A stretch of 64,000 nt of DNA from an uncultured virus (IMG/VR IMGVR_UViG_3300005673_000046) (lineage: Duplodnaviria > Heunggongvirae > Uroviricota > Caudoviricetes), in the IMG/VR virus record IMGVR_UViG_3300005673_000046; one strand, given 5' to 3'. The translations under genes and the position numbers were made by a program. Numbering within the stretch: position 1 is the stretch's first letter; each line of letters opens with the position of its first letter. The notes beneath the pieces were generated by a model. It worked only from the letters and a program-made list of their open reading frames with translations. It was not told the DNA's origin and searched no databases. Positions 1 through 61,601 of the stretch are shown piece by piece.

Positions 1-1
1 C

Positions 2-58
2 GACGACAGCAAGACGCCCAACGTGGAGTTCAGCGGCGGCCCGCTGGACAGTCGATGA
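2..58 (+). CDS. 3' end of an upstream cassette gene (partial)
   Basis: Frame reads DDSKTPNVEFSGGPLDSR* into the first attC, as other cassette genes do; truncated by the window edge. Confidence 0.5.
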   Translation, partial: DDSKTPNVEFSGGPLDSR

Positions 59-101
59 ACCTGGGCGGCCGAGGGCCGTCCGCTGCAACGCAGGGTTAGA
101 A
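16..101 (-). mobile_element. attC: attC site 1
   Basis: Minus strand: TTCTAAC-cctgc-GTTGCAGC-ggAcggccc...gggccgcc-GCTGAAC-tccac-GTTGGGC; R'', L'', L' and R' boxes with two extrahelical bases. Confidence 0.88.
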
Positions 102-104
102 ACC

Positions 105-383
105 ATGACGGTGATAGACCTCGCACAAGCGAAAGCGGAAAAGACGCCGCACCTGAGCGGAACGGCGGTGTGCTTGGCATGTAAGCACGAGTGGGTGGCG
201 GTGGCGCCAGTCGGGGCGGTATGGATGGAGTGCCCGGCCTGTTCGCTTGAGCGCGGAAGGTATCGAGGCCCGGTGCAGCTAGACCGCGACCATTGGCACT
301 GCCACTGCGGTAATGATCTGTTCCAGGCCACGCAAGATGGGATGTACTGCCCGAACTGCGGGGAGTGGCAGCATGGTTTCTAA
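105..383 (+). CDS. Cys-rich Zn-finger/ribbon protein (cassette gene)
   Basis: CxxC/CxC pairs (CLAC, CPAC, CHC, CPNC); stop TAA lies inside the TTCTAAC core box. Confidence 0.85.
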   Translation: MTVIDLAQAKAEKTPHLSGTAVCLACKHEWVAVAPVGAVWMECPACSLERGRYRGPVQLDRDHWHCHCGNDLFQATQDGMYCPNCGEWQHGF

Positions 384-449
384 CGGCGGAGTGGAGCCGC
401 ACGCGGAGGCCGCAGGCCGTAGCGTGTCGGCTCGCACGACTGGTTAGGC
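378..449 (-). mobile_element. attC: attC site 2
   Basis: Minus strand: GCCTAAC-cagtc-GTGCGAGC-cgAcacgc...gcgtgcg-GCTCCAC-tccgcc-GTTAGAA. Confidence 0.9.
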
Positions 450-494
450 CCCGGCTCCGAAGCGCGCAATGCAACCGTACTAGGACTAAACGAC

Positions 495-833
495 GTGGAT
501 AAGCAAACCGACCTGATTTCGAGGCTGCAAGACGAGGCCGACTTGTGCCGCAACGATGGCGCCGCCGACATTGCCGCGCTGCTGGATGAGGCGGTTGAGG
601 CGATACGCGACCGCAACCATGACACGCAAGTGGGCGAGAAGTGGCGCCAGGACAGCCGGCTGGAGACGTGGTTCCCGCTGACGGCCGAGCAGCGGAAGGT
701 CGAGCAAGCGGTGCTTGCCGAACTGGTGCTGAAGACTGGCGAGCTGATCGAGCACTTGCAAAGGACCGGGCGCCTGAAGCCCTGCTTCTACATGCCGGCG
801 CTGGCTGATGCGCGCAACGTGCTGGCGAACTGA
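495..833 (+). CDS. hypothetical phage protein (cassette gene)
   Basis: GTG start after AGGA; protein-like composition. Confidence 0.75.
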   Translation: MDKQTDLISRLQDEADLCRNDGAADIAALLDEAVEAIRDRNHDTQVGEKWRQDSRLETWFPLTAEQRKVEQAVLAELVLKTGELIEHLQRTGRLKPCFYMPALADARNVLAN

Positions 834-850
834 CAAGGAAGACATGACAC

Positions 851-1231
851 ATGGACACGCCCGAAGAGCGCGCGCTGACCGCTGCCGTGTTTGAGGCTCT
901 CGACCTGAGCCCAGAGCAGTTCTTGACGGACGGCGGCTTGGTCAATCGCGGCAAGCTCCGCGCGGCCCTTTGGTATCCGCATGACTACCTGCCAGAAGGG
1001 CACTGGATGCGCGCTGCCGATGAAGGGCGATTGCGTGCGGAGAACGCCGCGCTCAAGCGCGACCTGCAGTACGCCAGGGACGGGCTGACGAAGGGGCGCA
1101 CGCGGATGCGAGAAGACAACGAGCGGTTGCGCGCCGCGCTGGTGAAGATTGAGGCCGGCATGTGCATTGACCCGCGCACTGTGGCGCGCGAGGCATTGGG
1201 GCCTAACGTTCGAGGCAAGCCGCGCCGCTAG
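851..1231 (+). CDS. hypothetical protein with coiled coil (cassette gene)
   Basis: AAGGA RBS; LRAENAALKRDL coiled coil; C-terminus reads into attC3. Confidence 0.75.
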   Translation: MDTPEERALTAAVFEALDLSPEQFLTDGGLVNRGKLRAALWYPHDYLPEGHWMRAADEGRLRAENAALKRDLQYARDGLTKGRTRMREDNERLRAALVKIEAGMCIDPRTVAREALGPNVRGKPRR

Positions 1232-1257
1232 GCGTCGGCTTGGGCGAGGGGTTGGCC
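1201..1257 (-). mobile_element. attC: attC site 3 (57 bp, 59-be-like)
   Basis: Minus strand: GGCCAAC-ccctc-GCCCAAGC-cgAcgcc-tagc-ggcgcg-GCTTGCC-tcgaac-GTTAGGC. Confidence 0.88.
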
Positions 1258-1285
1258 GGCGTGGTTCCGGCGCGAAAGGACAGGC

Positions 1286-1717
1286 ATGAACCAAGACAAG
1301 CAAACGGATGGCGGCGAGGACCGCGAGTTTCGCGAGTGGTGTATTGCTGCCGCGCAGTCCGCCGAAGGCTCTGCGTCGATCACGGCGCGCAACGCATGGA
1401 ACGCTCGGGCCGCCCTGGCAAACATTGCGGTGGGCGCGTACCTCGGGAAGATGACGCTGCGAGACCGTGACGTTGCGATGGATGCATCGCTGGAGTCCTT
1501 GCAAACCACCGCCTACGCCGATGGCCGCGCAGACGAGCGCACCGAAGTTCGTGCCGAAGTCTTGCGCGAACTGCTGGAGTGGGAGGCCCACTACATGCAA
1601 CTGGCTCGGGGCGGCGACAGAAGCGGGCACAGCGATGCTCGGGCAGACGCGGCGCGTGAGATTCACGACCACCTGCGCAGTTCGTGGGAAGTGCGCGGCA
1701 AGCAACAAGCCGGCTAA
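1286..1717 (+). CDS. hypothetical phage protein (cassette gene)
   Basis: AAGGA RBS; stop TAA lies inside the GGCTAAC core box. Confidence 0.8.
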   Translation: MNQDKQTDGGEDREFREWCIAAAQSAEGSASITARNAWNARAALANIAVGAYLGKMTLRDRDVAMDASLESLQTTAYADGRADERTEVRAEVLRELLEWEAHYMQLARGGDRSGHSDARADAAREIHDHLRSSWEVRGKQQAG

Positions 1718-1811
1718 CGCCTGAGTTCAGGCGCCCGCCAAGGCTGCACGGCGGCGTGAGATGCAGCGAGGCGGCCCGCCGTGGCGGGTCGCCTGGAACG
1801 ACCAGTTCGGC
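1712..1811 (-). mobile_element. attC: attC site 4
   Basis: Minus strand: GCCGAAC-tggtc-GTTCCAGG-cgAcccgcca...tggcgggcg-CCTGAAC-tcaggc-GTTAGCC. Confidence 0.88.
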
Positions 1812-1843
1812 TGGGTACAGATGCACCGGAAAGGAGGCCCGCG

Positions 1844-2104
1844 ATGGGCAAGCTACAACTGAGCGCCGCCGAGAAGGCGGTGATGGACAAGGGCGTCGAG
1901 TTTGGCATGAACATGCTCAAGCTGGTGCCGACCGACGACGCGCTGGCAAAGGAGGCGCACATCACGGGCGTGCTGATCGCCTTCTGGGGCGCGCTGTGGG
2001 GCACGTTCGGCACCGAGTACGCGCGCGGCTTCATCGAAGCCCAGCTCCGAGGCATGGAACCCGGCCAACCGCACGAGCGGTTCACGCCGCCCCGAGTGCA
2101 GTAA
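1844..2104 (+). CDS. hypothetical protein (cassette gene)
   Basis: AAGGAGG RBS before ATG 1844; starts MGKLQLSAAEKAVMDKG. Confidence 0.8.
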   Translation: MGKLQLSAAEKAVMDKGVEFGMNMLKLVPTDDALAKEAHITGVLIAFWGALWGTFGTEYARGFIEAQLRGMEPGQPHERFTPPRVQ

Positions 2105-2107
2105 GAG

Positions 2108-2160
2108 GCCGAACTTGAATTACCGGACACCCTCCCCAGGCCCTGTCCGATAACGCCGCT
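2108..2160 (-). mobile_element. attI-like or degenerate attC site ending the array
   Basis: Minus-strand core GTTCGGC (2114-2108); inverted repeat TTACCGGACA/TGTCCGATAA (2120-2129/2144-2153); no RYYYAAC R'' box. Confidence 0.55.
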
Positions 2161-2174
2161 GTACCATTCTCCGA

Positions 2175-3164
2175 ATGACCAAGCGCCCCGGTCTGCCGAA
2201 GCGGGTCTACGAGAAGCACGGCCGCTACTGGTTCGTCGACGCGACGGGCAAGTGGAATGCCCTGACCCGCGTGAGCGAAGGCTTGCCCGCGATGTTCCGC
2301 GCGCTGGCCACGCTGACCGACCGCGAGCTGCGCAACGACACGATGCCGGCCGTCGCTGCCCGCTGGGTGGAGTTCAAGCTGCCTCACTGGGCGCCTGGCA
2401 CGGCCGAGGACATGAAGCGCAGCGCCGACCTGGTCGCCAGGCGCTTTGCCGAGTTCCGGCCCTCCGAAGTCACCACGCCGGTCTGCTGGGAGTTCCTGAG
2501 CGCCTACAGGGGCACGCCGCGGGCCCACAACCGCCATCGCACCGTGCTCAAGGGGATACTCGCGTTCGCCGCGCGTGAGGGGCTGCGCGAGGGCTTCTCG
2601 CCGTTGGACAACATCCCCCAGATGCGGATGGAGCCGCGTCGGCGGATCGTCACCGACGCCGAGGTCAAGGCGCTCAAGACCGCGCTCATGCAGCAGGCCC
2701 GCGGCGGCGCGACGCACTGCTTGATGGTGGACCTGTGCATGCTCACCGGCCAGCGCATCGGCGACGTGCTCAAGATGCGCTGGCAGGACGTCACCGACGA
2801 CGGCCTGCTGGTGGACCAGGGCAAGACGGACGCCCGACTCACAATCGAGTGGACGCCCGAGCTGCGCCAGGTGATCGACGCCTGCGCGGCCGGACGCGAC
2901 CGCATCGGCTACCTGCTGGTGCAGTCCACCGGCAAGCCCTACCGCTACGCCGGGGTGCGCAGCGCATGGGTGCGCGCGTTGGCCCGCGCCGGCATCGAGG
3001 ATCTGCACATTCACGACCTGCGCGGCCGCGCTGGCGCGGACGTGACCGATGAGCGCGGCATCGAAGAAGCGCAGCGCCTGCTCGGGCACGAGTCGGTGCG
3101 GATGACCGAGCACTACGTCAGGGGCAAGACCAGAAGGCGGGCCCGGCCCGCTGGAGCGAAGTGA
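2175..3164 (+). CDS. int: phage-type tyrosine recombinase/integrase
   Basis: TGQRIGD (R), QGKT (K), HDLR, LLGH, TEHY (Y); N-terminal LPKRVYEKHGRYWF arm-binding-like segment; no IntI-specific insertion. Confidence 0.95.
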   Translation: MTKRPGLPKRVYEKHGRYWFVDATGKWNALTRVSEGLPAMFRALATLTDRELRNDTMPAVAARWVEFKLPHWAPGTAEDMKRSADLVARRFAEFRPSEVTTPVCWEFLSAYRGTPRAHNRHRTVLKGILAFAAREGLREGFSPLDNIPQMRMEPRRRIVTDAEVKALKTALMQQARGGATHCLMVDLCMLTGQRIGDVLKMRWQDVTDDGLLVDQGKTDARLTIEWTPELRQVIDACAAGRDRIGYLLVQSTGKPYRYAGVRSAWVRALARAGIEDLHIHDLRGRAGADVTDERGIEEAQRLLGHESVRMTEHYVRGKTRRRARPAGAK

Positions 3165-3198
3165 TGCAACGACGATCTTTCCAGCTTGTGTTGCGTCA

Positions 3199-3384
3199 AT
3201 GAACAGCGCGGAGATGATGATTGCCATGGGCTACGGCGGCGCGGCGCTGCTCGCGCTCAATACGATCCTGTGGCTGCTGCTCGCCACCGATGCGTGGTGC
3301 CTGCGCAGGGCGGGACTCAACGCGGCGCTGGCGCTGCTGATGCTTGGCTATGGGCGCCTCGGAGAGTGGCTGACAGGTGTCTAA
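3199..3384 (+). CDS. small membrane protein
   Basis: 61 aa with two hydrophobic segments. Confidence 0.45.
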   Translation: MNSAEMMIAMGYGGAALLALNTILWLLLATDAWCLRRAGLNAALALLMLGYGRLGEWLTGV

Positions 3385-3544
3385 GAACCGCCCCAGAACC
3401 CGCATGAATGCTGGGTCGGGTTCGGCGGAATTCGTTAGACGAATCGGCCGCTAACCCGCATGGATGCTCACTTTCGCACCTGCCTTCTAAGCTGGTGCCC
3501 ATCCTATGGTGAGTGTCTAATTTTCGGCCGATTGTCTAATTTTC
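3378..3544. mobile_element. attP: attP region
   Basis: Core GCACCTGC-CTTCTAA-GCTGGTGC (3476-3498); arm-like repeats TGTCTAA at 3378, 3514, 3533 and inverted TTAGAC at 3435; repeat AACCCGCATG(A/G)ATGCT at 3397 and 3453; just downstream of int. Confidence 0.75.
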
Positions 3545-3617
3545 CGCCCGTAGCTCAGCTGGATAGAGCACGCGCCTTCTAAGCGCGGGGTCGGGGGTTC
3601 GATCCCCTCCGGGCGGG
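3544..3617 (+). tRNA. tRNA-Arg(TCT), CCA not encoded
   Basis: Acceptor CCGCCCG/CGGGCGG, D arm GCTC/GAGC, anticodon arm CGCGC-CTTCTAA-GCGCG, T arm GGGGG-TTCGATC-CCCTC. Confidence 0.95.
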
Positions 3618-3619
3618 CA

Positions 3620-6600
3620 TCACTGCTCCTCCAGCTCGTACCCCTCGGCGCGCGCGCGCCGGCGCTCGACCTCTTGCCAGCGCCGGTCGATCTTGCGCAT
3701 CGCCTTGTCGATGGCGTCCTGCTCGGCCTCCCAGCGGTCATCCTCGGACAAGCCGCTGCGCTCCAGGCCGATGATGGTCCGCCGCAGCTGGGCTTCGATT
3801 TCCCGCAGCTCGGCGTTGATGCCCTGCATGAACAGGTATTCCTGCGTCTCCGGGGCGTAGCTGCCCAGCTTGACGCCGATGGCGCTGAAGAAGGCCTGCG
3901 CCAGCGATGCCTTCTCCTGGCCCAGCGGGCCGGGCTCGATGCGGCCGCGCCAGGCGTTCAGCAGGTTCTCGGTGCTGTAGGTGCCCGGCAGGCCTGGGAA
4001 GTTGGGCATCAGGCCCTTCCACAGGTGTTCGGCGCTGGCGCCCAGCTTCTCGCCGAGCTCGTCGGTGCGCAGCGTGATGTCGCGCCCGGTGAAGCCGGCG
4101 GTGTTGAGCATGAACTCGAAGAACAGCACGGCCGGGCCGCCCGGGATCAGCGGCGGCGGGATCGGGACGGCGGCGTTGCCTGTGCCCGTGTCCACGATGT
4201 CGCCCAGCGCCACCCAGCGCCGCACGTCCAGGAAGACGGGGTTGCCGTTGGCGTCGTTCCAGGGCATGCGCACCAGCTTCGGGGTCAGGAAGCCCCAGAT
4301 GCGCCCGGCCTTCTCGTCGGCCAGCCAGGCGCGTTCGCGCTCCTCGTCGCCGTCGTCGCCCAGCATCATGTAGGCCAGCGTGTTCAGCGACCCAGCGACC
4401 AGGCCGTACTTCATGAGCTTGTGCGGCTTGTCGACCGCGGTCTTCAGCATCATCGGCACCGCCCGGTAGGTGAAGGAGAAGAACGGCCAGACGGTGCGCC
4501 GCATCGCGTTGACCCACGGCGCGGAGATTTCGTAGTTGAGGAAAGAGTCGCGCGCGAACTTGCCGGCGTCGTGGTCACTGATGCCGTCCTCGCGCGCCTT
4601 GACGAAGGCGGCCAGGCGGAACACCACATCCTCGGCGCCGTACAGCTTGATGAGCTTGCGCGGCACCCAGGCCGCCGCGCGACCGACTGGCGCATCCTTC
4701 GCGGCCGCCAGCGCCTGGCGATACTCCCGGTGGCGCAGCAGGTCCATGACCTGGGCCGCGGTGATGAGCGATTGGCCGCCGGCGTCGCGCTCAATCTCGC
4801 GCCGCAGCTCCTCGAGCAGCGGCTTGTAAAGCTCCTCGCGGATTTCGACCTCGTTGAACATGCCGGCGTCGCCGCCGTTGTCCTCGAAGTCCTCCACCAG
4901 CTTCTTCATCTCCGGGTCGGAGCGCGCGGTGGCCATCGCCCTGAGCGCCAGGTACAGGTGCCGGCCCTGAATGTCGTGCATGTCCGCGAACAGCCAGTTG
5001 GCCATCACGTTGTTCATGTGTGTGACCGGACTCAGCGCGGTCTTGCTGATCTTCCAGAGCTTGAGCATGCTCTGCCACAGCCTGGACAGCTGCCCCTGGT
5101 CGGTGAACTGACCGATCTGGCGCAGCTCGTTCCAGACCGGCCCCGGCACCCAGCGGCCGGCCAGGTTGCCGAACGCGGTGACGTTGGTGCCCTTGATCTT
5201 GGTGCTCGGCACCTGGACCCACTCGTTCTTGAGGTAGCTGCGCGCCAGGAAGTAGCTGGCGTCGGCCTGCTTGGCCCCTGCCGGCAGGCGCGACTCGTCG
5301 GCGACTGACTCGTTGCGCGCGACCCAGTCCAGGAAGCGCGCCGTCTCGATGTCGCGCGTCATCTGCATCATGGTGGCCACGGTGGCGAACTTGACCTCCT
5401 GAATCTCGCCCATCTTCGTGCGCTCGGCCAGGGTGAAGTCGCGCCACATGCCGACCTTGTCCTTCTGGTCGAAGAACCGGGCTTCCCACAGGCCATCGTT
5501 GCGCCAGCCCAGCAGGTGTCGCGGGATCGGCACGTCCTCGGGCCAGTAGACGATCTGGCGGATGCGGCCCAGCGGCTGGCCGTTCTCGTCCTCGAACAGC
5601 TGCGGCGTGTCGTCGTCGCGCGGCTTGTCGCGCAGCTCCAGGCGGTGGAACTTCTGGCCCTTGAGCGAGGGATCGTGCGCGCCACTGTTGGTCTTGCGCT
5701 GCCACCAGTCGGCGGTCCCGATCTGCGCCATCGAGGCGTTGTCGCGCATGCCGCGGCCCTTGAGCGTGTCGCCCAGAATGCGGATCGACCGCGACTTGAC
5801 CTCGTTGGCCAGGCGCTCGTCGGCGGTGTGACGCTCGTAGCTGCGGTGCATGTACGCGAAGCGGTTGCGCTCGCGTGACTCGGCGCTGATGAGCCCCAGG
5901 CGCACGGCCTCATCGGACAGGTGCTCGATGTCCTGCTTGAGGCTGGCCAGCACGGCGCGCTGTCCTTCCGGCAGCGCGTCGAACAGGGCGGCCGCGGCGC
6001 GCATGGCCGGCTCGGCCCCGGGGTTCTCGGGGTTGGTGTTCATCCACAGGTACGCGACGCGCGACTGCTCCATCGTCAGGGCGCGGAGCTTGTCCACCGT
6101 CTCGCGGGTCTTGCGCGCGTTGACCCGGATCGCGGTGCGCATCGCGGTCTTGGCCTCGCTGAAGCCATCGCTCACGCCGTAGCGGTCCACCAGCCCGGCC
6201 TTGATGTATTCCCAGTAGTCGCCCATGTGACCGCCCAGGAAGGCGTCGGCCATCCTGCCGGCATGCACTGCCCCGGGGGCGACGACCTTCTTGATGAGCG
6301 CGTCGACCGGCGTGGCGACCAGCTGCACCGGCTTCTCGATGGCGTAGTTCACCAGGTCGAAGGCGCTGAATGGCGTCTCCATGGTCGCGCGCGGCAGCTT
6401 GAGGCTGATCGGGCGCAGCGACGGGGGCGCAGCGGCGGGCGGCGGCTGCTGGCTCAGCGCCGGCAGCTCGCCGCGGTCGACATGCGGCGTCGCCGCCACG
6501 GCGCGCCGGGCGGACATCAGCAGGTCGAAGGTTTCCGCCTCGGTCAGGCTCTCCAGCCAGTCGGCAATGGCCTTGCCGAACTCGCCGAACCGCTGGCGCA

Positions 6601-9600
6601 GGGCGCGCTGCAGGCTGGCCATCACGTAGCGCCAGGCCTTGGGCGCCGGCGCGCCGGCAGCGCGATCGGCCAGCGCCTCCTCCACCGCCAGCGCCTGAAC
6701 GGCCTGCTCGGCATCCTGCCGCGACATCCCCAGGCCGACCCTGGCCTGCACCTGCGCGGCGCCCCACTGGGCATGCCAGGCAGCCGCCTCGGTCGCCAGC
6801 GCAGGGTTGGCGGCGCGCAGCGCCAGCATCATCTGGGTGTAGCGGTCGCCCAGGAACGCGCGCAGGCCGAAGTGCCCGTAGACCTCGTGCCAGAGCACCC
6901 GCAGGCCCTCGTCGATGCTGCCGATCATGTCCGCGACGAGGAACACCCGGCCATCGGGCATCAGCAGCCCGCGCGTGCTGTTCAGCGCGCGCATGCGGCG
7001 CAGGTAGTCCTGGATGTCCGGCGGCAGCTCGGCGGCAGTGCGGGCAACGGCCACGACCGGCATGCCGGGCTCGCGCGACCAGTGCCTGGTGGCCTCGGCC
7101 ACGGCGGCGCCGAGCTTGTCCGGCGCGACGCCGGGGGCGTACTTGCTGCGCCGCTTCGTCGCCGGCTGCCCGGACATCACCGGCAGCCCGCCGCCGGGCT
7201 CGGTGCCGCGCTCGGCGGCCGAGGACATGCTGACCGGGTCGATCACGTCCAGCAGGCGGACGTCGGCCAGCGCCAGCGCGGCCTTGATGTTCTCCAGGGT
7301 GCGCTCGTCGTAGGCGCCGCCCGGGTTCATGACCAGCACCGTGCTGGCGGCCGCCTCGGCCGCCGAGTTGATGAGCCGGTCGTAGCGGTCATCCTGGCGA
7401 AGCCGGCCGGCCACAGCGGGCGCCAGCGGCACCCAGGCGGTGGGCTTGCTCTGGTAGTTCATGAACAGCAGGCCCGGCCGCGAGTCCGCCGCATGCAGCA
7501 CGAGCGCCTTGTCCTTGGCCTCTGCAGGCGAACCGATCACGCTGAGGCCGGTCTGGCGAGACTCGATGGTGCGCTCGACCACGGGCACCGTCGTCGTCGT
7601 GGTCGCGCTCGGCGTGACCACGCCGCTGTAGGTGCCGCCCTCCGGGGTGACGGCCATGAAGCGGGTGATCCCGTCATCGTCGGCCACCGCGGCCAGGCCG
7701 CGCCAGCGCACGGTCGACGGCTCGAAGGAGCGCGCCATCGCCTGGCTCAGGTTCTCGTCGGCACGCGACAGTTCGCTGCGGCCGCTGGGGTGGTTGTGGA
7801 CCGCCCATACCGAGTGCGCATCCTTGATGCGCATGGCCTCCATCAGCACGACGCCGGGATAGACCGAGGTCTGCGACGGAGCGCCCTTGAAAGCGCCGAT
7901 GATGGCCAGCGGGCGGCCGTTCTTGTCGGTGACGAGCGCGTCGAAGTGCTCGACGGCGTAGCGCGTCAGCGCGGAGAGGGCTGCGGCCGCCTCGTTCCAG
8001 TTGGTGACGCGAGCAACCGGCAGATCGTGCCGCCGGACTTCGACGAGCTGGCTGGTGACGTGGTAGATGCCGGGGAAGAACGGGTCTTCCCGCACAGATA
8101 CGGCGTTGGGGGCTGGTACGTTCCGACGCGGGGCGCGGCCGGCCCGAGGTGGATTTCCTCCTCGGGGATCGGGTAGCGGTTGTTCGAACAGGTCATAGTT
8201 GGCCTCGGGCTCGTTGACAGCGTACACCGCGCGCTCCTGCGCGGCAACGGGCGGCACGGGGAAGGCGTCCAGCACCATCTGCAGGCGGTGCAGTGCAACG
8301 AAGGTGCCCCCGTCCTTGTTGAAGACGAAGGACTCCGGCAGCGCGGCCTTCACCTGCTGCGCGTCGACGTGCCGCAGGATCACGCCGAGAATGAGCTTGC
8401 CCTGGCGCGTGGTGTGCCCGATGACCTCCAGCCCGTGCTTGGTCGCCAGCTCCTCGCCGCTGGTCCTGGCCTCGGCCTTGGCGGCCTTCTTCTTCTCGCG
8501 CTCCTGGCGCGCCTGGTCGGCCGGCGGCGCGGCACCGTCGACGCCTTCCTCGGCGCCTTCCTCGGCGCGCGGCTTCGTGCGCTCTGGCACGCCCAGGTTC
8601 TCGACCTCGCCGAACAGCTCGGCAATGTCCTGCGTGCCGGAGAAGTCGTACTCCACCGGCGCCGGCGCGGTCTGGTCCTTGCCCAGCTTGTCGATCACGA
8701 CGATGCGCGTGCGGACGCCGGTGCCGGCGCGCGCGAAAGCCACGCCAGGCAGCCGGATGGTGGCGACGACATGGGCGCCCGGCGCGATGGGCTCGGACTT
8801 CTTGCGCGGGCCGGACTCCTCCAGCTTGTCGATGGCCGAGCCGAGCACGGGTTCGATGCGCCCGGTGTCCTGCATCTTGGCCATGACGTGGGTGTCGTGG
8901 ACCTCGCGGACGTGCCCCACGCGTCCGTTGCGCAGCTCGATGCGGTCGTCGTAGAACAGCTCGGCCTCGCCGTCGGCGATGCGGGCAGTGCCCAGCGCCT
9001 TGATCGGCACGTCCTGGGTGCCGCGCAGGAACTTCTCCAGCCGCGCGTCGGCGGCCGGCCCCTCGGGCAGCAGCGCGACGATGCGGCCGCCCTCGAACAG
9101 GTGCTGGTTGTAGGCCTTGGCCAGGTGCTCGAAGGCCAGCTTGCCGCCACGCTCGAACGGCGGGTTCATGGCGATGCCCCAGGCCTTGTTGGCCGCGGGC
9201 AAGTCCTCGAAGCGGGTTTCGCGGATGTCGCCGTCGAAGACCATGGCCAGGCGCGAGGCCAGCACGGTGCTGGGCTCGACGGCCAGGCGATGGACGGTGT
9301 CGGGCAGCCAGCGCGCGATGGCGCCGTGGCCGGCGCTGGGCTCGATGGCGAGCTCGCCGGGCCGCAAGTCCAGCCACTGGACCATCTTCAGGCCGATGGG
9401 CTCGGGGGTGGGGTAATACTCGTGCCCCTCCTCGCTCTTGGTCTGCTGGTTCTTCTTGCGCTGGGCCCAGTACATGGACATGGCGCGGTCCCAGTCGCTG
9501 AGAATCTGCGCCATCTCGCGGTCGCGCGCCTTGCCCCCGGTGCCCTCGCCCTCGAAGCCTGGTGGCCAGTCGCCCGTGTCCTCGAAGGCCTCGATGTAGG

Positions 9601-12600
9601 CGTCGCGCAGCCCGCGCGCCATCTCGCCCAGGCCCAGGTTCTCGGCCGCCTCCGCGCGCTCGGCGATCTTCTCGGCGAAGGCCGCGCGCTCCCAGGACGT
9701 CTGGGTGTTGAAGTAGCGGAACATCGCGTTGGAGGCCTGCCCCACGCGGTAGATGCGGCCCTCCTGCTGGATCGAGCGCGTCGGGCGCACCGGCAGGCCC
9801 AGGTTGATGAGCACGCGCTGGTGCTTGCCCGTGGTGTCGTGGCCGCTCCAGCCCTTGTCCTTGTCGGCCTGCACGACGAGCAGCGCCGGGCCGGTGTCGT
9901 CGTCGTTGAACCAGTCGACGGCGGCGACCTTCTCCTTGTCGGAGATGCGGCCGTTGAGCACGCGCGCGCGGTCGGCGAAGTGCTCCATCATGGTCTGGAT
10001 GGGGCTCTTGAGCGTGTCCCACGGGTAGGTGACGAGGTCGTCGAACTCCTTGCGCCAGGCCTCCATCGCGGCGTAGGCCCAGGCGTCTTCCTGCGGGTTG
10101 AACTTGACGTTGAACGGGTCCAGGCGCTGGCCCTGGATCAGGTCGTGGAACAGCACGACCTTGCGGCCCAGCTCGAGCTGAGCGCGGATGTACGGCACAG
10201 CCGCCTCGGCCTTGATGGCCTCCAGCATGCGCATGCGGGTCAGGTAGTCGAACTCGCTGCGCAGCTTGCGGCTGGCCTTGTGGATGCCGGCGCGCAGCTT
10301 GTCGAGGCCGCTCTTGGGGTCTTTCTCGTACTCCTCGCGCGCGCCCTCGGTCAGGAACGGCAGCGCCTCGCTGGGGTCGGCTTCCCAGAACCACTGCAGG
10401 CCGCGGTCGATGCGCTGGCCGATGGCCGAATTGGCCGCGATGAACTTGCGGTCGTAGTCGAAATCCGACAGCAGCATCCGGCCGCGCAGCACGCCCTGGT
10501 TCTTGAGCCAGGTGTTGAACTGGCGCTGCATGATGCTGCTGTTGACCGACCACTCCGGCTTGGTCAGCTTGCCGTAGCGCATGCGCCAGCCGAAGTGCTG
10601 GATCATGAAGTTCTGGTAGGCGCTCGGCGCGTTGTAGCCGCGGCCCGGGACGAATCCCTCGTTCCAGTCGAACAGGTAGCCCTGCGCGATGACGGTGGAC
10701 TGCTCCCAGGCGAACGGCGTGGCCGACAGCATCAGCAGCCGCGTGCGGCCGGCGCCCTGCCCCTGCTCGATCAGCGACTCCTGCTGGACCTTCAGCTCGG
10801 CGAAGCGGCGCACCTTGGGCAGCAGCACCTTGTCGATTTCGGCCGCGGCGGCGTGGTTCTGCTTCTCCAGGTGCCCTGCCTGCTCGATGGTCAGCGCCAC
10901 GATTTCCGCGTACAGCTCGGGGTGCGCCATCTGGGTCCGCGTCTCGGCCGACTCCGGGTGCATGGTCAGCGCCCGGATGCGCAGGCCCGACTCGGTGATG
11001 GTGCCCTCCTGACTCTGGCCCATCTCGTGGACCTCGTCGGCGATGACCAGATCCCACCGGCGCTTGAGCAGCGCGTTGTTGTCGCGCAGGTTGGCGTAGG
11101 TCGTGACGACGACGCCCGTGCCGTGGTCCTTGGTGTTCTCCAGCGCCGTGACCTTGAGGCCCAGGTCCGGGCCGGAGCGCAGCCACCCTTCCAGGATGTT
11201 GCGGTCGGGCACGACGACGAGGATGGCGTCCTTGCCCTGCTTGGCGAACCGCTTGGCCACGCCCAGGCCGGTATAGGTCTTGCCGGTGCCGGTGCCGTTG
11301 GTGAACAGCATGCCGTAGCCGGTCGGCTGGGTCAGCCGCGCCTCGGCGTCGATGACATCCTGCTGCTGCTCGGGCAGCAGCATGGGCAGCGAGGCCCGGA
11401 TGTTCTCCTCGTCGTTGAGCTTGACGGGCAGCGCCTCGGCCTGGCGCTGCAGCTGGCGGCGCTTCAGGACATCGGCGGCGGTGCTTCGAGCAGCGTCCTC
11501 AACAGCCCCGTCTGAGATGGGGTCAGATGCCTTTCCTTGATCGCCAGCGAAATCGCCTCGTTGATCGTCAGCACTTCGGGCACCGTCTCGGCCCACTCGG
11601 GGTTGGCCTCCAGCACGCGGCCGATCGCCTGGCGTTCCTGCAGCAGGGGTGCCACTTCCAGGTACGCCAGCGCCACCATCGGATCGCTGACCCGGGCGCG
11701 CAGCGCGTCCCCCAGCTTGTCCGTTTCCGGCGGGAGGTCGCGCACGTCCATCGCCAGCAGGCGCTTCCACAGGGGCGTCTTGGCCAGCGGGGCGATCTGG
11801 CTGCGGAGTCGGTGGGGTGCGTACAGGAGCATCGGGGGCCTCCGTCAAGTCGGCCTTGGACTTCACCTGCGCCACCGTCATCAGGTCGTCGACGCTGCCG
11901 TCGGTGTAGCGGGCGGACATCGAAATGTACGCCCCCTGCAGATGCTTCAGGGTGAGGGATTCGGCGGCCTGGGGACCGATGAACTCGGCGACGTCGGCCA
12001 GCGCCTTCGCCGCGGCCTCGCGGAAGGTCCGCTTGCCCTCGATCACCGCGGCGTCCAGCAGCTCGGCCAGCACCGGCAGCAGCGCCTGCTCCTGCTCGCG
12101 CGTGAGCGCGGGCGGCGCTGGCTTGTCGCCATACTCCGGGCCGGGCTCCTCGGCCTTGGGCGGCCCGAAGATGTCGGACATGCGGCCCAGGGCGGTCAGG
12201 CGCTTCGTGCGCGCCTCGGCCTCGCGCTCCGGCGTCGGCGCGTTCTCGCTGCGGCCCAGCGGGCCTGCGGCGAACTCGCGGGCGTCCGGCCAGGTGGAGT
12301 GCCACCGCGGCGTCTCGCCAGGCTTGCGCACCCAGCGGTCGCCCTCCTTGACGACCTCCACGACCTTCACGGCCCAGCCTCCGGCCTCGGTCGCCGGCTG
12401 GAACTCCAGCACCTCGTCGAATCCAGCGTAGCCCTGCACGATGTTGCCGGGCGTGTAGTAGGCGCGCAGCCTCTCGAACTTGGCTTCGTACTCGGCCTCG
12501 GCCTTGTTGAGCCGGTCCACGCGCGGCCGACGGCCGGGCCCGATGTCGTCGAACCGATCTTGCGGGTCGCGCCTGGCGCGCTGCAACAGCCGCTTGAGCC

Positions 12601-15600
12601 GCTCGTCGATCAGGCGGACCTCGGCGGGCGTCAAGCCGCTGCTCACCAGCGGGCCGCGCACGCGCTGCGCAGCCAGGCGCTGCGCCAGCAGCGTCGCGCC
12701 AGCGTCGGTCGCCTCCTGGATCATGCCCCGCAACCGGCTATCGGCCTCCATGCGGGCGCGATCCGCTGGGCTGACCTTGGGCCCCTTCTTGGCCGGCGCC
12801 GGCGGTGCGACCGAGTCCTCCGGCCCGGACAGCTCGCCGTCCAGCGCGAAGGCCTGCACGGTGCCCGGCGCAAAGCGCGGGTCGTCCAGTGTGTAGGTGG
12901 TCTGCATGGCGCCGCCGCCCACGTTCAGCGACTTGACCGCCGTGACCTTGGTGCGCAGCGGCGGACCGTCGGGCTCGCCGTCCGGGGTGCGTGGCTGCCA
13001 GGTGACGGGGTCGCCACTGGCGAAGCGCGGACCAGCGGCCTCCAGCTCCGACCAGCGCAGCATGCGCGAGCCGCCGACCTCGAAGCGCACGATGGCGCCC
13101 TCGAAGGCCGGCCCGGGGCCGTAGAAGCTTTCGACATACCCGGGCTGCCCGGATGCGAGTTCGCGCACGCGCTGCAGCTTGCCGACGGGGGCGTAGCCGT
13201 CGACCTCGACGCCGTCCTTGAGGTAGCGCGCGACCTGGCGGAAGCCTTCGGGGATGGCCGGCTGCGCGTCGTCCTCCGGGAACGGCTTGCGGCCTTCGAC
13301 CGCGCGCTCGATCCAGTCACCCTGGATGCCCGGCGCGTTCTTCAGGGCCCGCACCGCGGCCAGCAGGCTCTTGCGTAGCTGCTCGCCGAGCCCGTCATCT
13401 GTCGGCCACAGGTCTTTCTGGCTGAGGGCCTGGATGCCGGTGTCTTGCACCTTGCGGCCACCGTCCCACTTCGATTCCTGGGTCTGCCACTGCTGCAGCC
13501 ATTGCGCCGCGGTCATGCCTTCGGGCTTGATCCTGTTGCTCTCCAGGCGATCGGCGCCGATCAGCTGAAACGCGCGGCCATAGTCGCGCAGGGCCGGATA
13601 GGCGGTGTTGAGCCAGTAGTCGCGGATGCGCTGGCGCGCCCCCTGCTGCTGGTCGTCAGCCGGCGCTGGCGTCGCCGCCGGTGGCGCGGCGGGCGGGTCG
13701 TAGGCGCTGATCGAGCCGAACAGGTCATCCGCGCCAGGCGCGGTCAGCGTGAAGTTGTCGCGGTCGGCGTCGGCGCGCGCGCGGTTCTCGCGCTCGGCGC
13801 GCTCGGCGGCCTCGCGGGCCAGGCGCTCGCGCTCGGCCCTGGCGTCGGCCTCCAGGCGGGCTTGCTCGTCCTCGGCGCGGCGGCGCAGCTCGGCCTCGTC
13901 GTAGGGTCGAAGCAGCGGGTCGGCTTCGCCTTGCTGCTCGTCGTCCAGCCACCAGTCGCGCCCAACCGCTGACGGGCGAGCGGCATCGAGAAGCTGCTGC
14001 GCGAAGTCCCGTTCCTCGGGCGTGTCCAGTCGAACGCTGCTGCGCGACCCCGCGACCTCGCCGTCGTAGCTCAGAACCTCGCCGTCAAGCCGAACGGCGT
14101 TCATCTTGCCCAAGACGGCGGTGATGAGCTGCCGCCTCGTGGCGGTTCCGATCTGGAGGCCGAGACGCGAATCGAACGCGCCGGCGGTGATCGGCTCGTC
14201 CAGGATGCTGCGCGCACCAGGCGCCGGCGCGTTCACGTCGCCATGCCGCTGCCATGGCCTGGTCAGGTCGATGTGTGCCTTGCGGTAGGCGTCGGCCAGG
14301 CGCTCGACGGGCTGGATCATGAACAGGGTCCGCATGCGCTCGACGCTGTTCTTCGGCGACAGCCGCAGGTTCGCGCCGATCAGGCGAACCTGCTCCTCGG
14401 TGAGCGCCGCGATGGAGCGGTCCACGGCATCGAGGAACCTGGCGCGGGCAACGTCCATGCCCGACTCGCGCGCCTCGCGGTCCTTGGCCCACTGCAGCGA
14501 CCGCTGGAGCTTGGCGAGCTGGCCCTTGCGCGACTTCAGCTGCTCGGCGGTGTAGGCATCCAGCAGCGCCTTGGCTTCCTTGCTGTGGCGCGCCCAGTGG
14601 TCGGGCCCCACGTAGGACTTCGGCGTCTGCGGCTTCAGGCGCTGCTCGGCCTCATGGCGGGCTCGCAGGTGCAGGATGCGGATGGCCCGCTCGATTTCCT
14701 CGACCGTGCGGCCGCCATCCGGCGGGCGCGGCGCAGGCGGGGCGGCCGCAGCCTGGTCGCCATCGGCCGGCAGGCCCGCCACGTACTGCTTGATCGCCCG
14801 GTTCATCTCCCCGGTGCCGCCGATGAACTCGCGCACCGAGGCGTCTTCGGGGATCGCACCGTCCTCGATGGCCTTGGCCACCGCGGCGCGCATCACGCGC
14901 CGGTAGTGCTCGCCGCCGACGATCTGGATGTCGCGCGGCATGGCGGCCAGCAGGCCCACCGGCAGCTCGCCGCTGGCGATCGAGGCCACCAGCTCGTCGG
15001 CGCGCTCGGCCGTCATCAGCTGGTCGTAGGGCTCGATCACCTGGTCGGGCCGCACGAAGCCGTGCTTGGCCGACAGGATGAACAGCCGCGGCGGGCTCTG
15101 CGCGCCCAGCGCCTTGCGGTAGGTGTTCCACAGCGGGCCGGTGTAGAAATCCTTGGCCGGCGTCGGCGCGCCGAGCTTCATCGCCCCGCATGGCATGAAC
15201 AGCCCGCACTCGTCGCGCAGGACATCGGGCGCACGCTCGCGCCCGTTGACGACCCGCGAGGCTAGGTCTTCGAGCCGCCGGACGGCTTCTTGACGACCAT
15301 CCCTCGGCGCAACCGCTCCAGGCGCAACAGGCGCTCCCTGTCCGCCGGGTCCATCTTGGCCAGCTTCAGCATCGCGTCGCGCTGCTTCTTGCTCTTGGGC
15401 GGCTTCCTTGGCCAGTTCATCGGCAATCTCCTGCTCGCTGAATCCCAGCGCGCGCATCTGGTCGGCCAGGGACTGCGGCGGCGCAGGCGCATCCCAGGCA
15501 ACGTCGTCGTCATCGAGCGCGTCGAGTTCAGCCGGCGTGATCCCGGCCTCCTCCATGATGGCACGGCGCTCGGCCTCGGCCTCGGCGGCCGCTTCCTCGT

Positions 15601-18600
15601 CCAGAGCCGGGTACAGCAGCTCCGGGTGGTTGTCCGCGAGCCACTGCTCGCGTTCCTGCGGCGTCATGGCCTCCCAGGCCTGGCGCTCTGCGTCCTCGTC
15701 GGCCTGATCCTCGGCCTGCTGTTCCGCGCGGGTCTTGGGCTCGTCGCGGTTGAGCGCACTCGTCACCAGTGCGCGTGCTGCCTCGTCGGCGGCCTTGTAG
15801 TCGGCCTCGTAGGAGCCGGGATCGAGGTAGCCCTCCTCCTCCATCCACAGCGCGAGCTCGTTGGTGTCGGCGATGCCGCCGTCGCGGAACAGGCCGCCGA
15901 TGCCGGAGACGGGCGGGTTGAACCAGCGCGCCACCGGGCGGCCGTTGCGGTCGCGGCCCAGCTCCTTCTTGAAGCTCAGATCGTGCAGCAGGCTCGGGTC
16001 GATGCCGCCGAGCTGCCGGCTGATTTCGGCGAGCATCCTGGAGCCCCAGACGGTGGCCGGATGCGAGCGCACGCCGGCAACGCGGCGCACGGCCTTGGGC
16101 GTCTCCTGCGGTTCATCCCAGCGCAGGTCGTCGACCGTGCGCTGTCCGATGGCCGCCTCGATCTTGGCGGCGATCTGCTCGGGCGTGTCGTCCTTCGCCT
16201 CGGTGTTGATCGAGCGCAGGAAAGCCTCGCCCGCGGGGGTGAGCTGCCGCTTGATCGGGTGGACGAGGTCGGCCTTGCGCAGCGCCTCCAGCACGCTCAA
16301 GTCCGCGCTGGCCGTCAAGGCGCCGTTCATCATGTCGACCAGCGTGTTCAGCACCGCGCCGCCCTTCCACGGCTCCTTGCGCTGCACGCGCGTCGGCGGC
16401 TTGACGCCGGTGACTTCCTCGACCCACTTGGCGATGGCGCGCGCCTGCTGGCGCTGGCGCTCGCTCGCCAGGCTGCCGGTGGCCTCCAGGATGTTGAACG
16501 CGCTGCGCTGCAGGCTGCGCCCGGCAGCGCGCAGCGCGTCCTCGCGGGTGGGGAAGGTGTCGACCACGCTGGGCGAGCTGCTGCCGCCGCTCATCGAGCC
16601 GCCGGTGGTGTTGTAGTGGCTGCCCGGCGCCCAGGTGCCGTCTTCCAGCTCGACCAGGCTGATGTCCGCCTTGACGCCCTTGGCCTGGCCCTTGGGGGCC
16701 GGCATGACCAGCGTCGTCATGTCCGGGGTGCTGTCCGGGACGAAGACGCCGTGGTCGTTCGGCGCGTGGCCGCCCTTCGTGCGGATGCGGGGCCTGCCTT
16801 CGGGCGTCGGAGCGAGGGGTGCGGCGCCGGCCGGCGTTCCTGGCCCGCCAGGGACGCTACCCGATGAAGCCTCCTCGACAGGCCCCGGCGGCGCCGCGGG
16901 CACATTGTCGCGCACCGGCTGGCCGAGGATGCCCCCGAGGCTTTCTAGGGCCTTCCGGCGCTTCTCGGCGGCGGCGCTGGGGGCCTGCGGCGGCGCCGCG
17001 GGAGGCGGCGCGGCCGGCTCCGGTGTGGCCTGCTCGACCTGGCTGGCCAGGTCTTCGCGGTTGGCGGCGAACTTGGCCGCCAGAGCCTCGGCATGGCGGT
17101 CGCCGAACTCGTTGCCGTACTCCGCGAGGATGCCCTCGATGTCGCGCAGCGCGCTGCGCGCCGCGCCGCGCATCGTCTCGATGTCCTCGGGCTTGGCCGG
17201 CTTGCCGGTTTCGGGATTGGTGCCGGTGCGCAGCGCGTCCAGCAGCATGTTGGCTGCGGCCAGGTCGGTCTGGATGCGGCCGACCACCTGCTGGTGCGTG
17301 TCGCGCACGGCCTGCGTCAGGTAGACGGGGTCGTCCTCCAGGCCCTCGAACATCGAGTTGCGGCCGGCCGCGGCCAGCTCGTCGAACTGCGGACGCGGGT
17401 AGGTCTTCTCGTAGTCCGGCGTGTCGCTCAGTGCAGCGTCCTGAAGTCCAGCTCCAGGCTGGGCGCTTCCGGCTCCCGGTCTGCCAGTATCGCCATCGCC
17501 GGGTGCAGGCGCTCCGGGAACATCGCCAGCGGGATTGACTCCCCCGGGTACAGCAGCATCCGGTCCCAGATTTCCGCCGCCTCGGCCAGCGTTATCGAGC
17601 ACTCCAGGACCGGCTCCACCAGGAACCGCGGGAGCAGCTGCCACGTCAGACTGGTCATCGAATCCCTCCTTGAAGGCTGGCGAGAACGGCGCCTTGTGGT
17701 TGCCGGTCTTGATCCAGTCCTTGAACATCGGCATGTCCATGCCGCTCAGGTAGCCCAGGCCCCGCCAGTCGGGCGTGTAGTTGGCGCGGTAGGCGGCCTC
17801 GGCCTCTTGCGGGCTGGCGAAGCCCAGCATGACCTTGTGCTCGTCGAACTTCCCGGTGCGCGGGTCGCGCTGGTCGATCACGAAGACCGGGCCGTCGTAG
17901 TCGGGCGGCGTGCCGGGCTTGATGAAGGTGTCGACGTGGTCGCCGTCCTTGCCTTCGGTGCCGCGGATGTAGCCGTAGTGCGACTGGACCGTGTTCTCCC
18001 AAGGCTTCCCGTCGGGGTCCACGCCGCGGCGCACCGAGCCCTGCGGGTTCTCGATGCTGATGTCCAGGCCGCCCAGGCGGATGTGGCCCTTCTTGTAGTT
18101 GCCGGCCTCCTTCTGCGGGTCGGTCGGCTCCGGGAGGTCGTTGGTCGGGCTCGTGGCGGCGCCGTGCGCCGCGTCGTCGACCGGGGTGCCCAGTAGCGCG
18201 CCGGCGTCCATCGGCGCGTCCGGGTTCGCTGGCGGCGATGCGGCGGCGGCCGGCGGTGCGGCGGCGGTGCGCGGCTGCACCGGAATCTGCGGCGTGATGC
18301 CGGGCCGCTGGCCGAAGTCTGGCGGCAGGGGCGGGAGGTCGCCCATCGTGGGCTCGCGGCGCTCGGGCGCCGGCGCGCCGCCGCGGCCGCCGGTGCGCAG
18401 GCGGCCGATGGCCGCGCCGCCGGCCTGCATGACGCCGGTGGCGATGAAGGTCTGGACCGCGGTGTCGCGCATCGACTCCAGGAAGCCAGCGACCGTGATG
18501 TCCTCGTCCAGGCCGAGCTTGGTCCCGTCCACCAGGTACTGGCCGGCGCTGGTGATCTGCTCGCCGATGCCCTCACCGACCTGGCCGCGCACGACCTGGC

Positions 18601-60823: not shown

Positions 60824-61240
60824 ATGGACGCAGGCACCCAATGTGCCGACGGCCTGCGGTGGTCTTGGCAGACTGTCGGCGATGTGTTGATCCTTCGAGC
60901 GAACGGCCCATTCGGGCCGGCGGGCGCGCACGCGGTGCGCATGCGGCTGTGGCACGCGCAAAGCTCCTGCATCGTGCCTGTGCTCGATGTCCGAGCTGCG
61001 GTGCTGCTGCCCGGTGTGACCGACGAGCTTCCGGCGCGCGGCGTTCCCGTGGCGCTGCTGACGCTCGAGATACAGCGCGCTACGGCCGAGGCGTGGGCCT
61101 ACAGCGCGTGCGATGCCGGCCTGCTGTTGATGCCGTTCAGCGAGGAACGCGCGGCCGTCTCCTGGGCTGCGGCGCGCGCGCGGAATCGGCGCTGGACGCA
61201 GCGTCGGAGGCCTTGGCAGAGTCAGCTCGGGCGTCGATAG
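60824..61240 (+). CDS. hypothetical protein, possibly STAS/SEC14-like
   Basis: VLILRANGPF..VLDVR..VALL..PFSEERAAVSWA. Confidence 0.45.
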   Translation: MDAGTQCADGLRWSWQTVGDVLILRANGPFGPAGAHAVRMRLWHAQSSCIVPVLDVRAAVLLPGVTDELPARGVPVALLTLEIQRATAEAWAYSACDAGLLLMPFSEERAAVSWAAARARNRRWTQRRRPWQSQLGRR

Positions 61241-61601
61241 CGCGCAGCGCGTGCATCGCCAGCGCGTAGGCCTGCGATCGCTTGCGCGGGTCGGCGATCG
61301 CGTCCAGTGACTCGGCCAGGTCCAGCGCCTCGGCCGACAGGCGCATCAGCGGCGGCTGACCCGCCTCGCCGCCGGCCGCAATAAGCTGCCACGGCTCTAC
61401 CCCGAAGACCTGGGCCACGCGCTCCAGTACATCCAGGCCGATCGACGTCCCGCCATCCTTGATGCGGCTGGCGGTCGAAGGCGACACCTCGGCCTCTCTG
61501 GCCAGCCGGCGCAGGTTCTCTCGCCCCCACTGCTCAAGCATCAGCTGCGACACCGCCGCCCACAGGACGGCTCGCGTGTCTGTCACATCGCGGGTTTTCA
61601 T
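61137..61601 (-). CDS. XRE-family HTH repressor (CI-like)
   Basis: LRRLAREAEVSPSTASRIKDG..IGLDVLERVAQVFGVEPWQLI; divergent from the Cro-like gene; no S24 peptidase domain seen. Confidence 0.85.
   Translation of the reverse strand: MKTRDVTDTRAVLWAAVSQLMLEQWGRENLRRLAREAEVSPSTASRIKDGGTSIGLDVLERVAQVFGVEPWQLIAAGGEAGQPPLMRLSAEALDLAESLDAIADPRKRSQAYALAMHALRAIDARADSAKASDAASSADSARAPQPRRRPRVPR

Follow-up and report, generated by a model that had tools for sequence, protein, structure and literature searches.

The left end of the DNA analysed here, a stretch of 64,000 nucleotides (the window) from the uncultured Caudoviricetes virus IMG/VR IMGVR_UViG_3300005673_000046, carries a compact integron-like array: four attC recombination sites on the minus strand and five complete open reading frames (ORFs) on the plus strand, followed by an attI-like stretch and the gene of a phage-type tyrosine integrase. 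Integrons are understood as bacterial systems whose cassettes lack promoters and are all read in the same polarity from a promoter next to the integrase, and this polarity is what the strand choice of attC sites is thought to protect. As the window genes are opposite to this norm, each attC precedes its gene, with the genes pointing at the integrase end. Cassette A (22-383, between AA/C crossovers at positions 21/22 and 383/384) consists of the attC site E0 and ORF1, and cassette B (384-1206) of the site E1, a leader, ORF2 and ORF3; cassette C (1207-1717), which extends from the left box of E2 to that of E3, holds E2 and ORF4, and cassette D (1718-2113), with E3 and ORF5, adjoins the attI-like end. 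The first attC begins at position 16, and the array passes beyond the left window end.

The strand of the attC sites was determined with a covariance model (R1) that was trained on six attC sites of class 1 integrons, given a structure of 22 pairs written by hand and kept free of window sequence, as a stand-in for IntegronFinder's own attC model. Eight class 1 sites had been gathered and six were used, MAFFT having mis-aligned the two long ones; the polarity of the training sites was fixed by intI1 and the resistance genes. Over a search space of 99,215 bases (the 64-kb window and four plasmid loci), R1 returned four full-length window matches, all on the minus strand, with 27.3-43.9 bits and E values of 6e-5 to 1e-9 (99 kb): E0 at 16-101 (86 nt, 27.3 bits), E1 at 378-449 (72 nt, 43.9 bits), E2 at 1201-1257 (57 nt, 36.9 bits) and E3 at 1712-1811 (100 nt, 43.1 bits). 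The sole further match in the window was partial (23550-23649, 13.1 bits, E 0.75). When window 1-2300 was searched with filters off, the plus-strand readings of the same intervals reached 5.0 bits for E0 and 7.0 bits for E2, and were unlisted for E1 and E3. Genuine class 1 sites scored 83-88 bits forwards and 14.6-23.4 backwards, so that R1 discriminates strands. A held-out genuine attC (L001 2241-2300) scored 42.6 bits, in the same range as the window sites; of the other two held-out types one reached 13.2 bits and one was missed, and R1 is therefore narrow. A second model, R2, which in distinction to R1 was trained partly on the window's own attC sites, scored E0 at 56.2 bits.

The R1 alignments cover all four sites end to end, with both single unpaired positions of the 5' arm occupied in the minus reading and spacers of 5 bases on the R'' side and 6 bases (5 in E0) on the R' side; DNA folds of E1 and E2 place single-base bulges in the plus-strand 3' arm (two in E1). 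The inverse core box of attC sites has the form RYYYAAC. In the minus reading the box pairs are TTCTAAC/GTTGGGC, GCCTAAC/GTTAGAA, GGCCAAC/GTTAGGC and GCCGAAC/GTTAGCC, every box has AAC or GTT, and 5/8 differ at one position each from the consensus, whose core box form GTTRRRY is given in the text of Qi et al. (2023; PMC9892861). A crude scan of the window for matched boxes yielded 33 chance pairs, missed the real sites and was dropped. E0 is 82.6% identical to an attC at L039 1584-1668, and the palindrome at 1198-1262 matched 2387 plasmid records. In the four plasmid matches inspected, it is without exception the attC after an aadB or gar-type gene of a class 1 integron, the window plus strand aligning opposite the resistance-gene strand and intI1 lying to the right on plus. 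The four minus-strand sites are genuine integron attC sites; their activity in recombination is predicted.

The five plus-strand ORFs are real genes. ORF1 (105-383, 92 aa) encodes a zinc-ribbon protein (Pfam A2L_zn_ribbon, E 8e-6), and ORF5 (1844-2104, 86 aa) a protein with a hydrophobic stretch; ORF2 (495-833), ORF3 (851-1231) and ORF4 (1286-1717) encode 112, 126 and 143 aa, and searches of PHROGs and NCBIfam assigned no function to ORF1-5. Guanine-plus-cytosine (GC) content by codon position follows the order GC3 > GC1 > GC2 in all five (GC1/GC2/GC3 of 0.71/0.38/0.84 in ORF2, 0.71/0.49/0.80 in ORF3 and 0.67/0.43/0.90 in ORF5). Ribosome-binding words precede ORF2-5, namely AGGA 9 nt before the GTG start of ORF2, AGGAAG and AAGGA before the ATG of ORF3 and ORF4, and, as the clearest, AAGGAGG before that of ORF5. 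Homologues were found in 15 viral loci for ORF1 (42-99% identity), in 3 for ORF2, 2 for ORF3, 1 for ORF4 and 11 for ORF5. Those of ORF2 in L038 and L039 are 62-64% identical and each lie between minus-strand attC sites, ORF3 has partial homologues in L081, L082 and L094, and the 25 homologues of ORF4 besides the window's own protein cover 26-61% of the query; the one viral locus for ORF4 is L080. A tblastn search with window ORFs of both strands against the integrase-related loci gave no match at E 0.01. The third plus-frame codon position was the most substituted in 12/12 nucleotide comparisons (12/6/31 substitutions by position for ORF1 against L096, 9/7/26 for ORF5 against L084); since one antisense frame shares the third codon position, this test does not decide the matter by itself. 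On the minus strand, the long ORFs (1-954, 788-1708 and 1714-2130; 138-318 aa) cross attC sites; among six minus ORFs tested, GC2 exceeds GC1 or GC3 in four and GC1 exceeds GC3 in two, and neither of the two that were scanned matched Pfam.

The TAA of ORF1 (381-383) lies within TTCTAAC (378-384), and that of ORF4 (1715-1717), the final three bases of its cassette, within GGCTAAC (1712-1718); the TAG of ORF3 (1229-1231) falls in the loop of the third attC, 25 bases beyond the crossover, and the TAA of ORF5 (2102-2104) stops four bases short of the last box (2108-2114). Distinct genes share five terminal residues that overlap the R' box (window 1190-1231, L038 about 4510-4590, L039 about 895-955); as these genes read on into the neighbouring attC, their final residues depend on the adjacent cassette.

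The limits of the cassettes were traced in two ways. The 7-base boxes that flank a gene pair at 27/28 positions, as against 19/28 for the two boxes of one site; in cassette C the flanking boxes pair at 6/7, and in cassette D the right E3 box pairs at 7/7 with 2108-2114. The ends of cassette A (95-106 and 373-384) pair at 12/12, and as the paired bases include the start and stop of ORF1, the gene spans the cassette from box to box. Such pairing of flanking boxes is a mark of exchange at a fixed crossover; being symmetric, it is blind to polarity. Polarity is given by the units shared with other contigs. L095 shares 99.2% identity with the window over 18-385 and matches it at no other place, and L094 is 98% identical over 78-385; a contig from an RNA library (X16) matches 16-385 with one difference and continues into unlike DNA past both ends, a 5253-nt contig from a riverine DNA run of another study (X6) matches 380-1208 with one difference and has unlike DNA on either side, and the match of contig X5 also stops at 1208. 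The breaks at 16-18, 380, 385 and 1208 are the predicted AA/C points, allowing for shared box letters, and the attC sites behind three near-identical copies of ORF1 measure 72, 123 and 57 nt. The shared units thus consist of the left attC and its gene or genes rather than a gene and its right attC, from which four cassettes follow, with every gene reversed. Judged by these sequence identities, the cassettes have evidently moved between contexts. In contig X5, an apparent joint from 36 to 1770 (side 21) was set aside as most likely a likeness between two attC sites.

Within the family of cassette B, a leader of ~45 nt after the attC (window 450-494) and the junction after ORF2 (834-854) are conserved, with relatives at L038 3953-4270 and at L039 502-560 and 975-1300. 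As different second genes stand behind the junction, with no attC between, genes are swapped within the cassette by another route.

The array ends at a last crossover between 2113 and 2114. Homology to L085 and L086 ends at 2114, and homology to L084 continues to 2158; in L084, L085 and L006 the stretch directly before intI carries the same motifs as window 2114-2165, which on this resemblance is best read as an attI-like remnant of the integron platform. In these three relatives a true integron integrase (IntI) is encoded on the gene strand just after the array, with TIGR02249 scores of 417-450 bits (cut-off 265) and the domain pair Phage_int_SAM_4 and Phage_integrase. L084 is a 35.5-kb contig with terminal repeats that is rated complete, and L006 a prophage ending beside host cytochrome c maturation genes. 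The corresponding gene of the window (2175-3164, plus strand) encodes a phage-type integrase with the Pfam domains Phage_integrase and Phage_int_M, whose start lies 61 nt past the crossover, with intI 53 nt past it in L084 and at a similar distance in L085. We rejected it as a divergent IntI, as it gave no match to TIGR02249 at E 0.01 and an E value of only 0.35 in BLASTP against the IntI of L084. In L084 (5483-6505) and L085 (5998-7119), in both on the minus strand, a second, phage-type tyrosine integrase follows right after intI on the opposite strand; the integron there adjoins a phage integration module, as it does in the window. With four minus-strand attC sites within 1.8 kb and no intI in 64 kb, the array falls under the rule for clusters of attC sites lacking integron integrases (CALINs), stated by Cury et al. 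(2016; PMC4889954) as at least two attC sites that share a strand at distances of <4 kb and lack an intI nearby.

The first-pass annotation of this DNA had placed five complete ORFs on the plus strand, with stop codons in or beyond the R' box, had put every attC on the minus strand from the asymmetry of extrahelical bases, and had concluded that all cassette genes are inverted relative to their attC sites. Each of these statements holds: the polarity given by R1 (with the plus strand, on which a better attC score had been named as counter-evidence, scoring lower at all four sites), the coding evidence from codon-position GC, ribosome-binding words and homologues, and the ends of the shared cassettes agree. 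The interval assigned to the array, 105-2104, covers the genes and needs to be widened on the left to the first attC and beyond; the annotation had overlooked that the array has an attI-like end, that IntI is lacking, that one cassette contains two genes and that the attC belonging to each gene is the one upstream of it.

For a survey of ORF versus attC polarity in other phage arrays, viral loci were picked by their likeness to window genes or to three phage IntIs. Taking the homologues of window genes as anchors, 59/59 attC hits lie opposite the anchor strand, in 15/29 viral loci; in L006, L038 and L039 this holds for 12/12 hits, the anchor in L006 being the phage integrase. A second set comprised the best 80 of 278 stretches encoding relatives of the phage IntIs. 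Here attC hits were found in 49/80 loci, and 139/145 hits lie upstream of intI and diverge from it. When the coding strand of 95 viral cassette bodies was called by a score of codon-position GC, 59 were opposite to the attC strand, 13 the same and 23 ambiguous. A Pfam scan of the cassette ORFs, with L171 (a duplicate of L169) and ORFs <60 aa left out, matched 8/73 'opposite' ORFs and 1/58 'same' ORFs, and in the divergent arrays 8/8 cassette genes with a match run with intI. The eight matches are Dam, an N6_N4 methylase, two D12 methylases (on related contigs), two Mom proteins, a PAPS-reductase domain and an Rv2179c-like exoribonuclease. The sole 'same' match lies in L154, where the attC sites run with intI. 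The proposal of the first-pass annotation that these are phage-adapted cassettes is thereby supported and widened, with the reversed layout seen in every related viral array examined and, in three of them, beside a true IntI.

Further arrays were noted in the course of the survey. The attC sites of L154 (7001-9833) follow intI and share its strand, as in the inverted-integrase type, and one cassette gene matches DpdA, a DNA-modification family. L086 (2277-7934 of a 58-kb IMG/VR contig, 76% complete) has 14 attC hits on one strand within 5.7 kb, and no IntI was found in this contig. L046 (G003 contig C83, 87547-87998), from the metagenome-assembled genome that holds L006, is a second cluster of three attC sites with ambiguous gene strand. 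In a collection of isolate phages only 9 records carry an IntI relative; of these, Shewanella phage M16-3 is canonical in the deposited annotation, its genes diverging from intI, and virus Rctr41k, with an IntI-like gene, all genes on one strand and no attC by R2, was counted neither way.

As a bacterial control, 151 genomes of the family of L006's assembly were searched, of which 104 have attC hits and 65 an IntI over the cut-off. In 30 bacterial attC loci the clearly longer ORF lies on the attC top strand in 38/49 segments and on the opposite strand in 2, with 9 ambiguous, and 8/8 Pfam matches (among 81 ORFs) are on the top strand. In 30 bacterial IntI loci 29/29 attC hits diverge from intI, and almost every cassette body with an ORF has its longest one on the top strand. 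The sampled arrays of this bacterial family are canonical. In GC-rich phage arrays ORF length fails as a strand caller and was replaced by codon-position GC, Pfam and homology. A quick maximum-likelihood tree was computed from 110 IntI proteins (79 viral, L006 and 30 bacterial; the partial L179 excluded), with viral rows chosen by likeness to the phage IntIs and bacterial rows as the 30 best scorers. A branch with 98% support in the SH-like approximate likelihood ratio test (SH-aLRT) parts 70 viral or prophage rows from 30 bacterial and 10 viral rows. Since the tree is unrooted and its rows were selected, we treat the split between viral and bacterial IntIs as a lead and not as a finished result.

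The window covers all or much of the genome of a tailed phage. Matches to PHROGs profiles on the minus strand at about 20-40 kb comprise terminase, portal, major head protein, internal virion protein and tail fibres; further matches are RecT, an exonuclease, a repressor-like gene at 61137-61601 on minus and an O-like replication gene at 62858-63802 on plus. At the left end the five small plus-strand ORFs and the tyrosine integrase are followed by a tRNA-Arg gene (3544-3618) and, on the minus strand, by a single ORF of 5447 aa (3620-19963) that stops 2 nt from the tRNA gene and adjoins the structural genes. A 24-nt inverted repeat (3379-3440), a 17-nt copy of the anticodon region of this tRNA (3476-3492) and two 19-nt direct repeats (3511-3548) lie between the integrase and the tRNA gene or at its edge; 3379-3618 is probably where the phage integrase has its attachment region and arm sites. 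Relatives of this integrase (53-68% identity) were found in assemblies of Hydrogenophaga, Roseateles, Rubrivivax and Caldimonas, so that the host is probably one of the Burkholderiales. The whole stretch is also present in four sequencing runs from bioreactor sludge, which are its possible source. An Rfam scan of the window found two tRNAs only, and blastn of 1-3600 against the phage collection gave tRNA matches only.

Taken together, window 16-2165 is probably the end, next to attI, of a phage-borne integron whose integron integrase has been lost and whose mirror-image genes are an adaptation to transcriptional read-through. The integron would have adapted to a one-directional phage gene cluster. 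The cassette genes and the following integrase lie on the same strand, all genes called in L006 between 216 and the phage integrase at 10984, this included, are plus-strand genes, and a simple scan of 1-3700 found no promoter-like or terminator-like site. From a one-directional cluster with no detectable promoter or terminator we infer read-through from an upstream phage promoter into intI or int; under such read-through only reversed cassettes would be expressed, and a mirror-image pool would be kept. Reading of the cassettes by the rightward early transcript, as the first-pass annotation had suggested, is a possibility that fits the data. New cassettes entering at attI would come to lie at the far end of the transcript, beside intI and away from the promoter. 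After loss of intI from an ancestor, the window cassettes would be moved by IntI supplied in trans from a co-resident phage or from the host, and IntI is common in the sampled host family.

Several observations weigh against this reading. The survey rests on a related, non-random sample, the viral loci having been picked by likeness, and IMG/VR contigs may include mis-sorted bacterial DNA. At E 0.001, 14/29 viral loci with homologues of window genes have no attC, so that such homologues also occur outside cassettes. With 13 'same' and 23 ambiguous bodies among 95, reversal is not an absolute rule, and by ORF length alone the high-GC phage arrays gave 4 opposite, 2 same and 8 ambiguous of 14. 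Within the window, tblastn with the three phage IntIs found no IntI (best E 0.006 over 41 aa), ORF3 reaches its stop only via 25 bases of the neighbouring attC, and the promoter lies outside. The RNA-library contigs over cassettes A and B (X15, X16) are unstranded and possibly DNA carry-over, and gaps in coverage of the stretch across the four runs have no significance.

Among the competing accounts, the one that survives best holds that orientation is set by replication or the single-stranded state, the position of the attC bottom strand on the lagging-strand template or the non-template strand of the operon raising cassette turnover during phage replication, and that the genes follow the operon for reasons of their own. 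As geometry the argument is sound: the bottom strand is plus, which would serve as lagging-strand template for a fork moving in an assumed rightward direction, with the O-like gene on plus. Placement of the bottom strand on the lagging-strand template favours attC folding and excision, and inversion of a Vibrio array raised excision from below 7e-5 to 3e-2, according to the text of PMC13108822. On the other side, the window sequence points to no origin, fork direction or end-to-start join, and a prophage is copied by host forks of either direction. The array of L154, in which the attC sites are turned relative to intI and the genes still run with intI, fits the rule that genes follow the operon better. 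We consider replication unlikely, though not negligible, as the main cause of the reversal, and possible as an added effect.

That the array is an inert passenger, a piece of a bacterial integron or CALIN captured once illegitimately, with an orientation of no consequence and no ongoing exchange, we regard as improbable. It would suit the absence of IntI from the window and the composition of the region, with a GC content of 0.654 for 1-2000 and about 0.70 for the remaining window, and a GC3 of 0.73-0.90 in the cassette genes where most phage genes exceed 0.9 by the filter used; off-target or illegitimate recombination is one suggested route of entry in the text of Qi et al. (PMC9892861). It does not account for cassettes that are 98-99.9% identical in other arrays, contigs and studies and break at crossover points, nor for the recurrence of the reversed layout in every related viral array examined, including arrays with an intact IntI on the viral-only side of the tree. 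As the sampled bacterial arrays are canonical, genes on the attC top strand would be the expectation for any piece captured from bacteria. A further account, in which the phage-type integrase of 2175-3164 took over cassette recombination, is very improbable: its gene starts at an intI-like distance from the crossover and diverges from the attC top strands as intI does, but the protein is not an IntI, only L006 among 33 loci with relatives of it has attC sites, and that locus has its own IntI in addition. Its position beside tRNA-Arg and repeats is typical of a phage attachment region.

Two readings would remove the reversal altogether. We give hardly any credence to canonical cassettes, with plus as the attC top strand, each attC after its gene and the asymmetry a matter of noise in near-palindromes. 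The sites are indeed imperfect palindromes in which both end boxes suit the box consensus, stop codons in a box of the form ...TAAC beside the gene also occur in canonical cassettes (aadA1), and the box-pairing test is symmetric between the two models. Against this stand the at most 7.0 bits of any plus reading by a model free of window sequence that separates the strands of class 1 sites, the different attC sites that follow near-identical copies of ORF1, and the shared units, which take the left attC and omit the right (18-385 and 380-1208, not 96-443 or 444-1251). Least credible of all is that the minus-strand ORFs are the real genes and the plus ORFs their GC-rich shadows, because the minus ORFs, long as they are and undecided as the ORF-length tally was in high-GC arrays, cross attC sites, have atypical codon-position GC in all six cases tested and no Pfam match (0/2 in the window, 0/57 'same' ORFs outside L154), and because protein homologues at 42-54% identity and the ribosome-binding words belong to the plus frames.

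In this widespread phage version the recombination geometry has thus been kept with every gene turned, which means that two rules thought to be linked can be uncoupled. A separate phage cassette pool is indicated. To the wider proposal that phages of the Burkholderiales type keep an integron lineage of their own, with a distinct IntI, ordinary attC and attI sites, a mirror-image cassette pool read towards intI by the phage operon, cargo rich in genes for DNA modification and other counter-defence, and members such as the window that lack intI and need IntI in trans, we assign an even chance. Such a pool raises the questions whether phages shuffle accessory genes (DNA methyltransferases, Mom, PAPS-reductase-like proteins) by an integron integrase during infection, whether strand placement tunes this shuffling, and how far phage and bacterial pools mix. 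If the wider proposal is correct, cassette expression, and perhaps shuffling as well, would be tied by the reversal to phage gene expression and replication, and reversed genes would stay silent after capture by a bacterial integron. One consequence for annotation is that tools looking for genes on the attC strand will wrongly assign what viral cassettes contain.

Some promoter-bearing chromosomal cassettes are reverse-oriented. Chromosomal integron cassettes with a promoter of their own, such as toxin-antitoxin cassettes, are described in the text of PMC13108822; they share with the window an expression of single cassettes that is independent of Pc, but are scattered exceptions in canonical arrays, whereas in the window the whole array is reversed and has no promoter-like site. 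Integrons and 17 CALINs in phages have been reported by Qi, Rajabal, Ghaly, Tetu and Gillings (2023; PMC9892861), together with the recombination of phage attC sites by IntI1. According to their text, the CALINs are attC clusters without an integron integrase in phage genomes, as in the window, and the cargo includes DNA methyltransferases, as in the viral arrays analysed here; the same text, in the passages covered, is silent on reversed genes, an attI end and a viral IntI group. Shewanella phage M16-3, their complete phage integron, is canonical, unlike the window. Our literature search, which covered Qi et al. at the level of the text, found no published description of the reversed layout.

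The 'inverted integron-integrase group' of Treponema and others (Cury et al., 2016; PMC4889954), as presented in its text, resembles the viral arrays in that the genes run as intI does. In that group intI is turned and the genes are canonical to attC, whereas in the viral arrays the genes are turned and intI and attC keep their usual arrangement; L154 resembles the inverted-integrase type. With classical integrons the window shares the attC architecture, the crossover point and the matched end boxes, and the viral arrays share with them the divergence of attC from intI (139/145 viral and 29/29 bacterial hits). It differs from them in having no intI and, by the simple scan, no Pc-type promoter at the intI end, and in carrying its genes on the attC bottom strand, directed towards the intI end.

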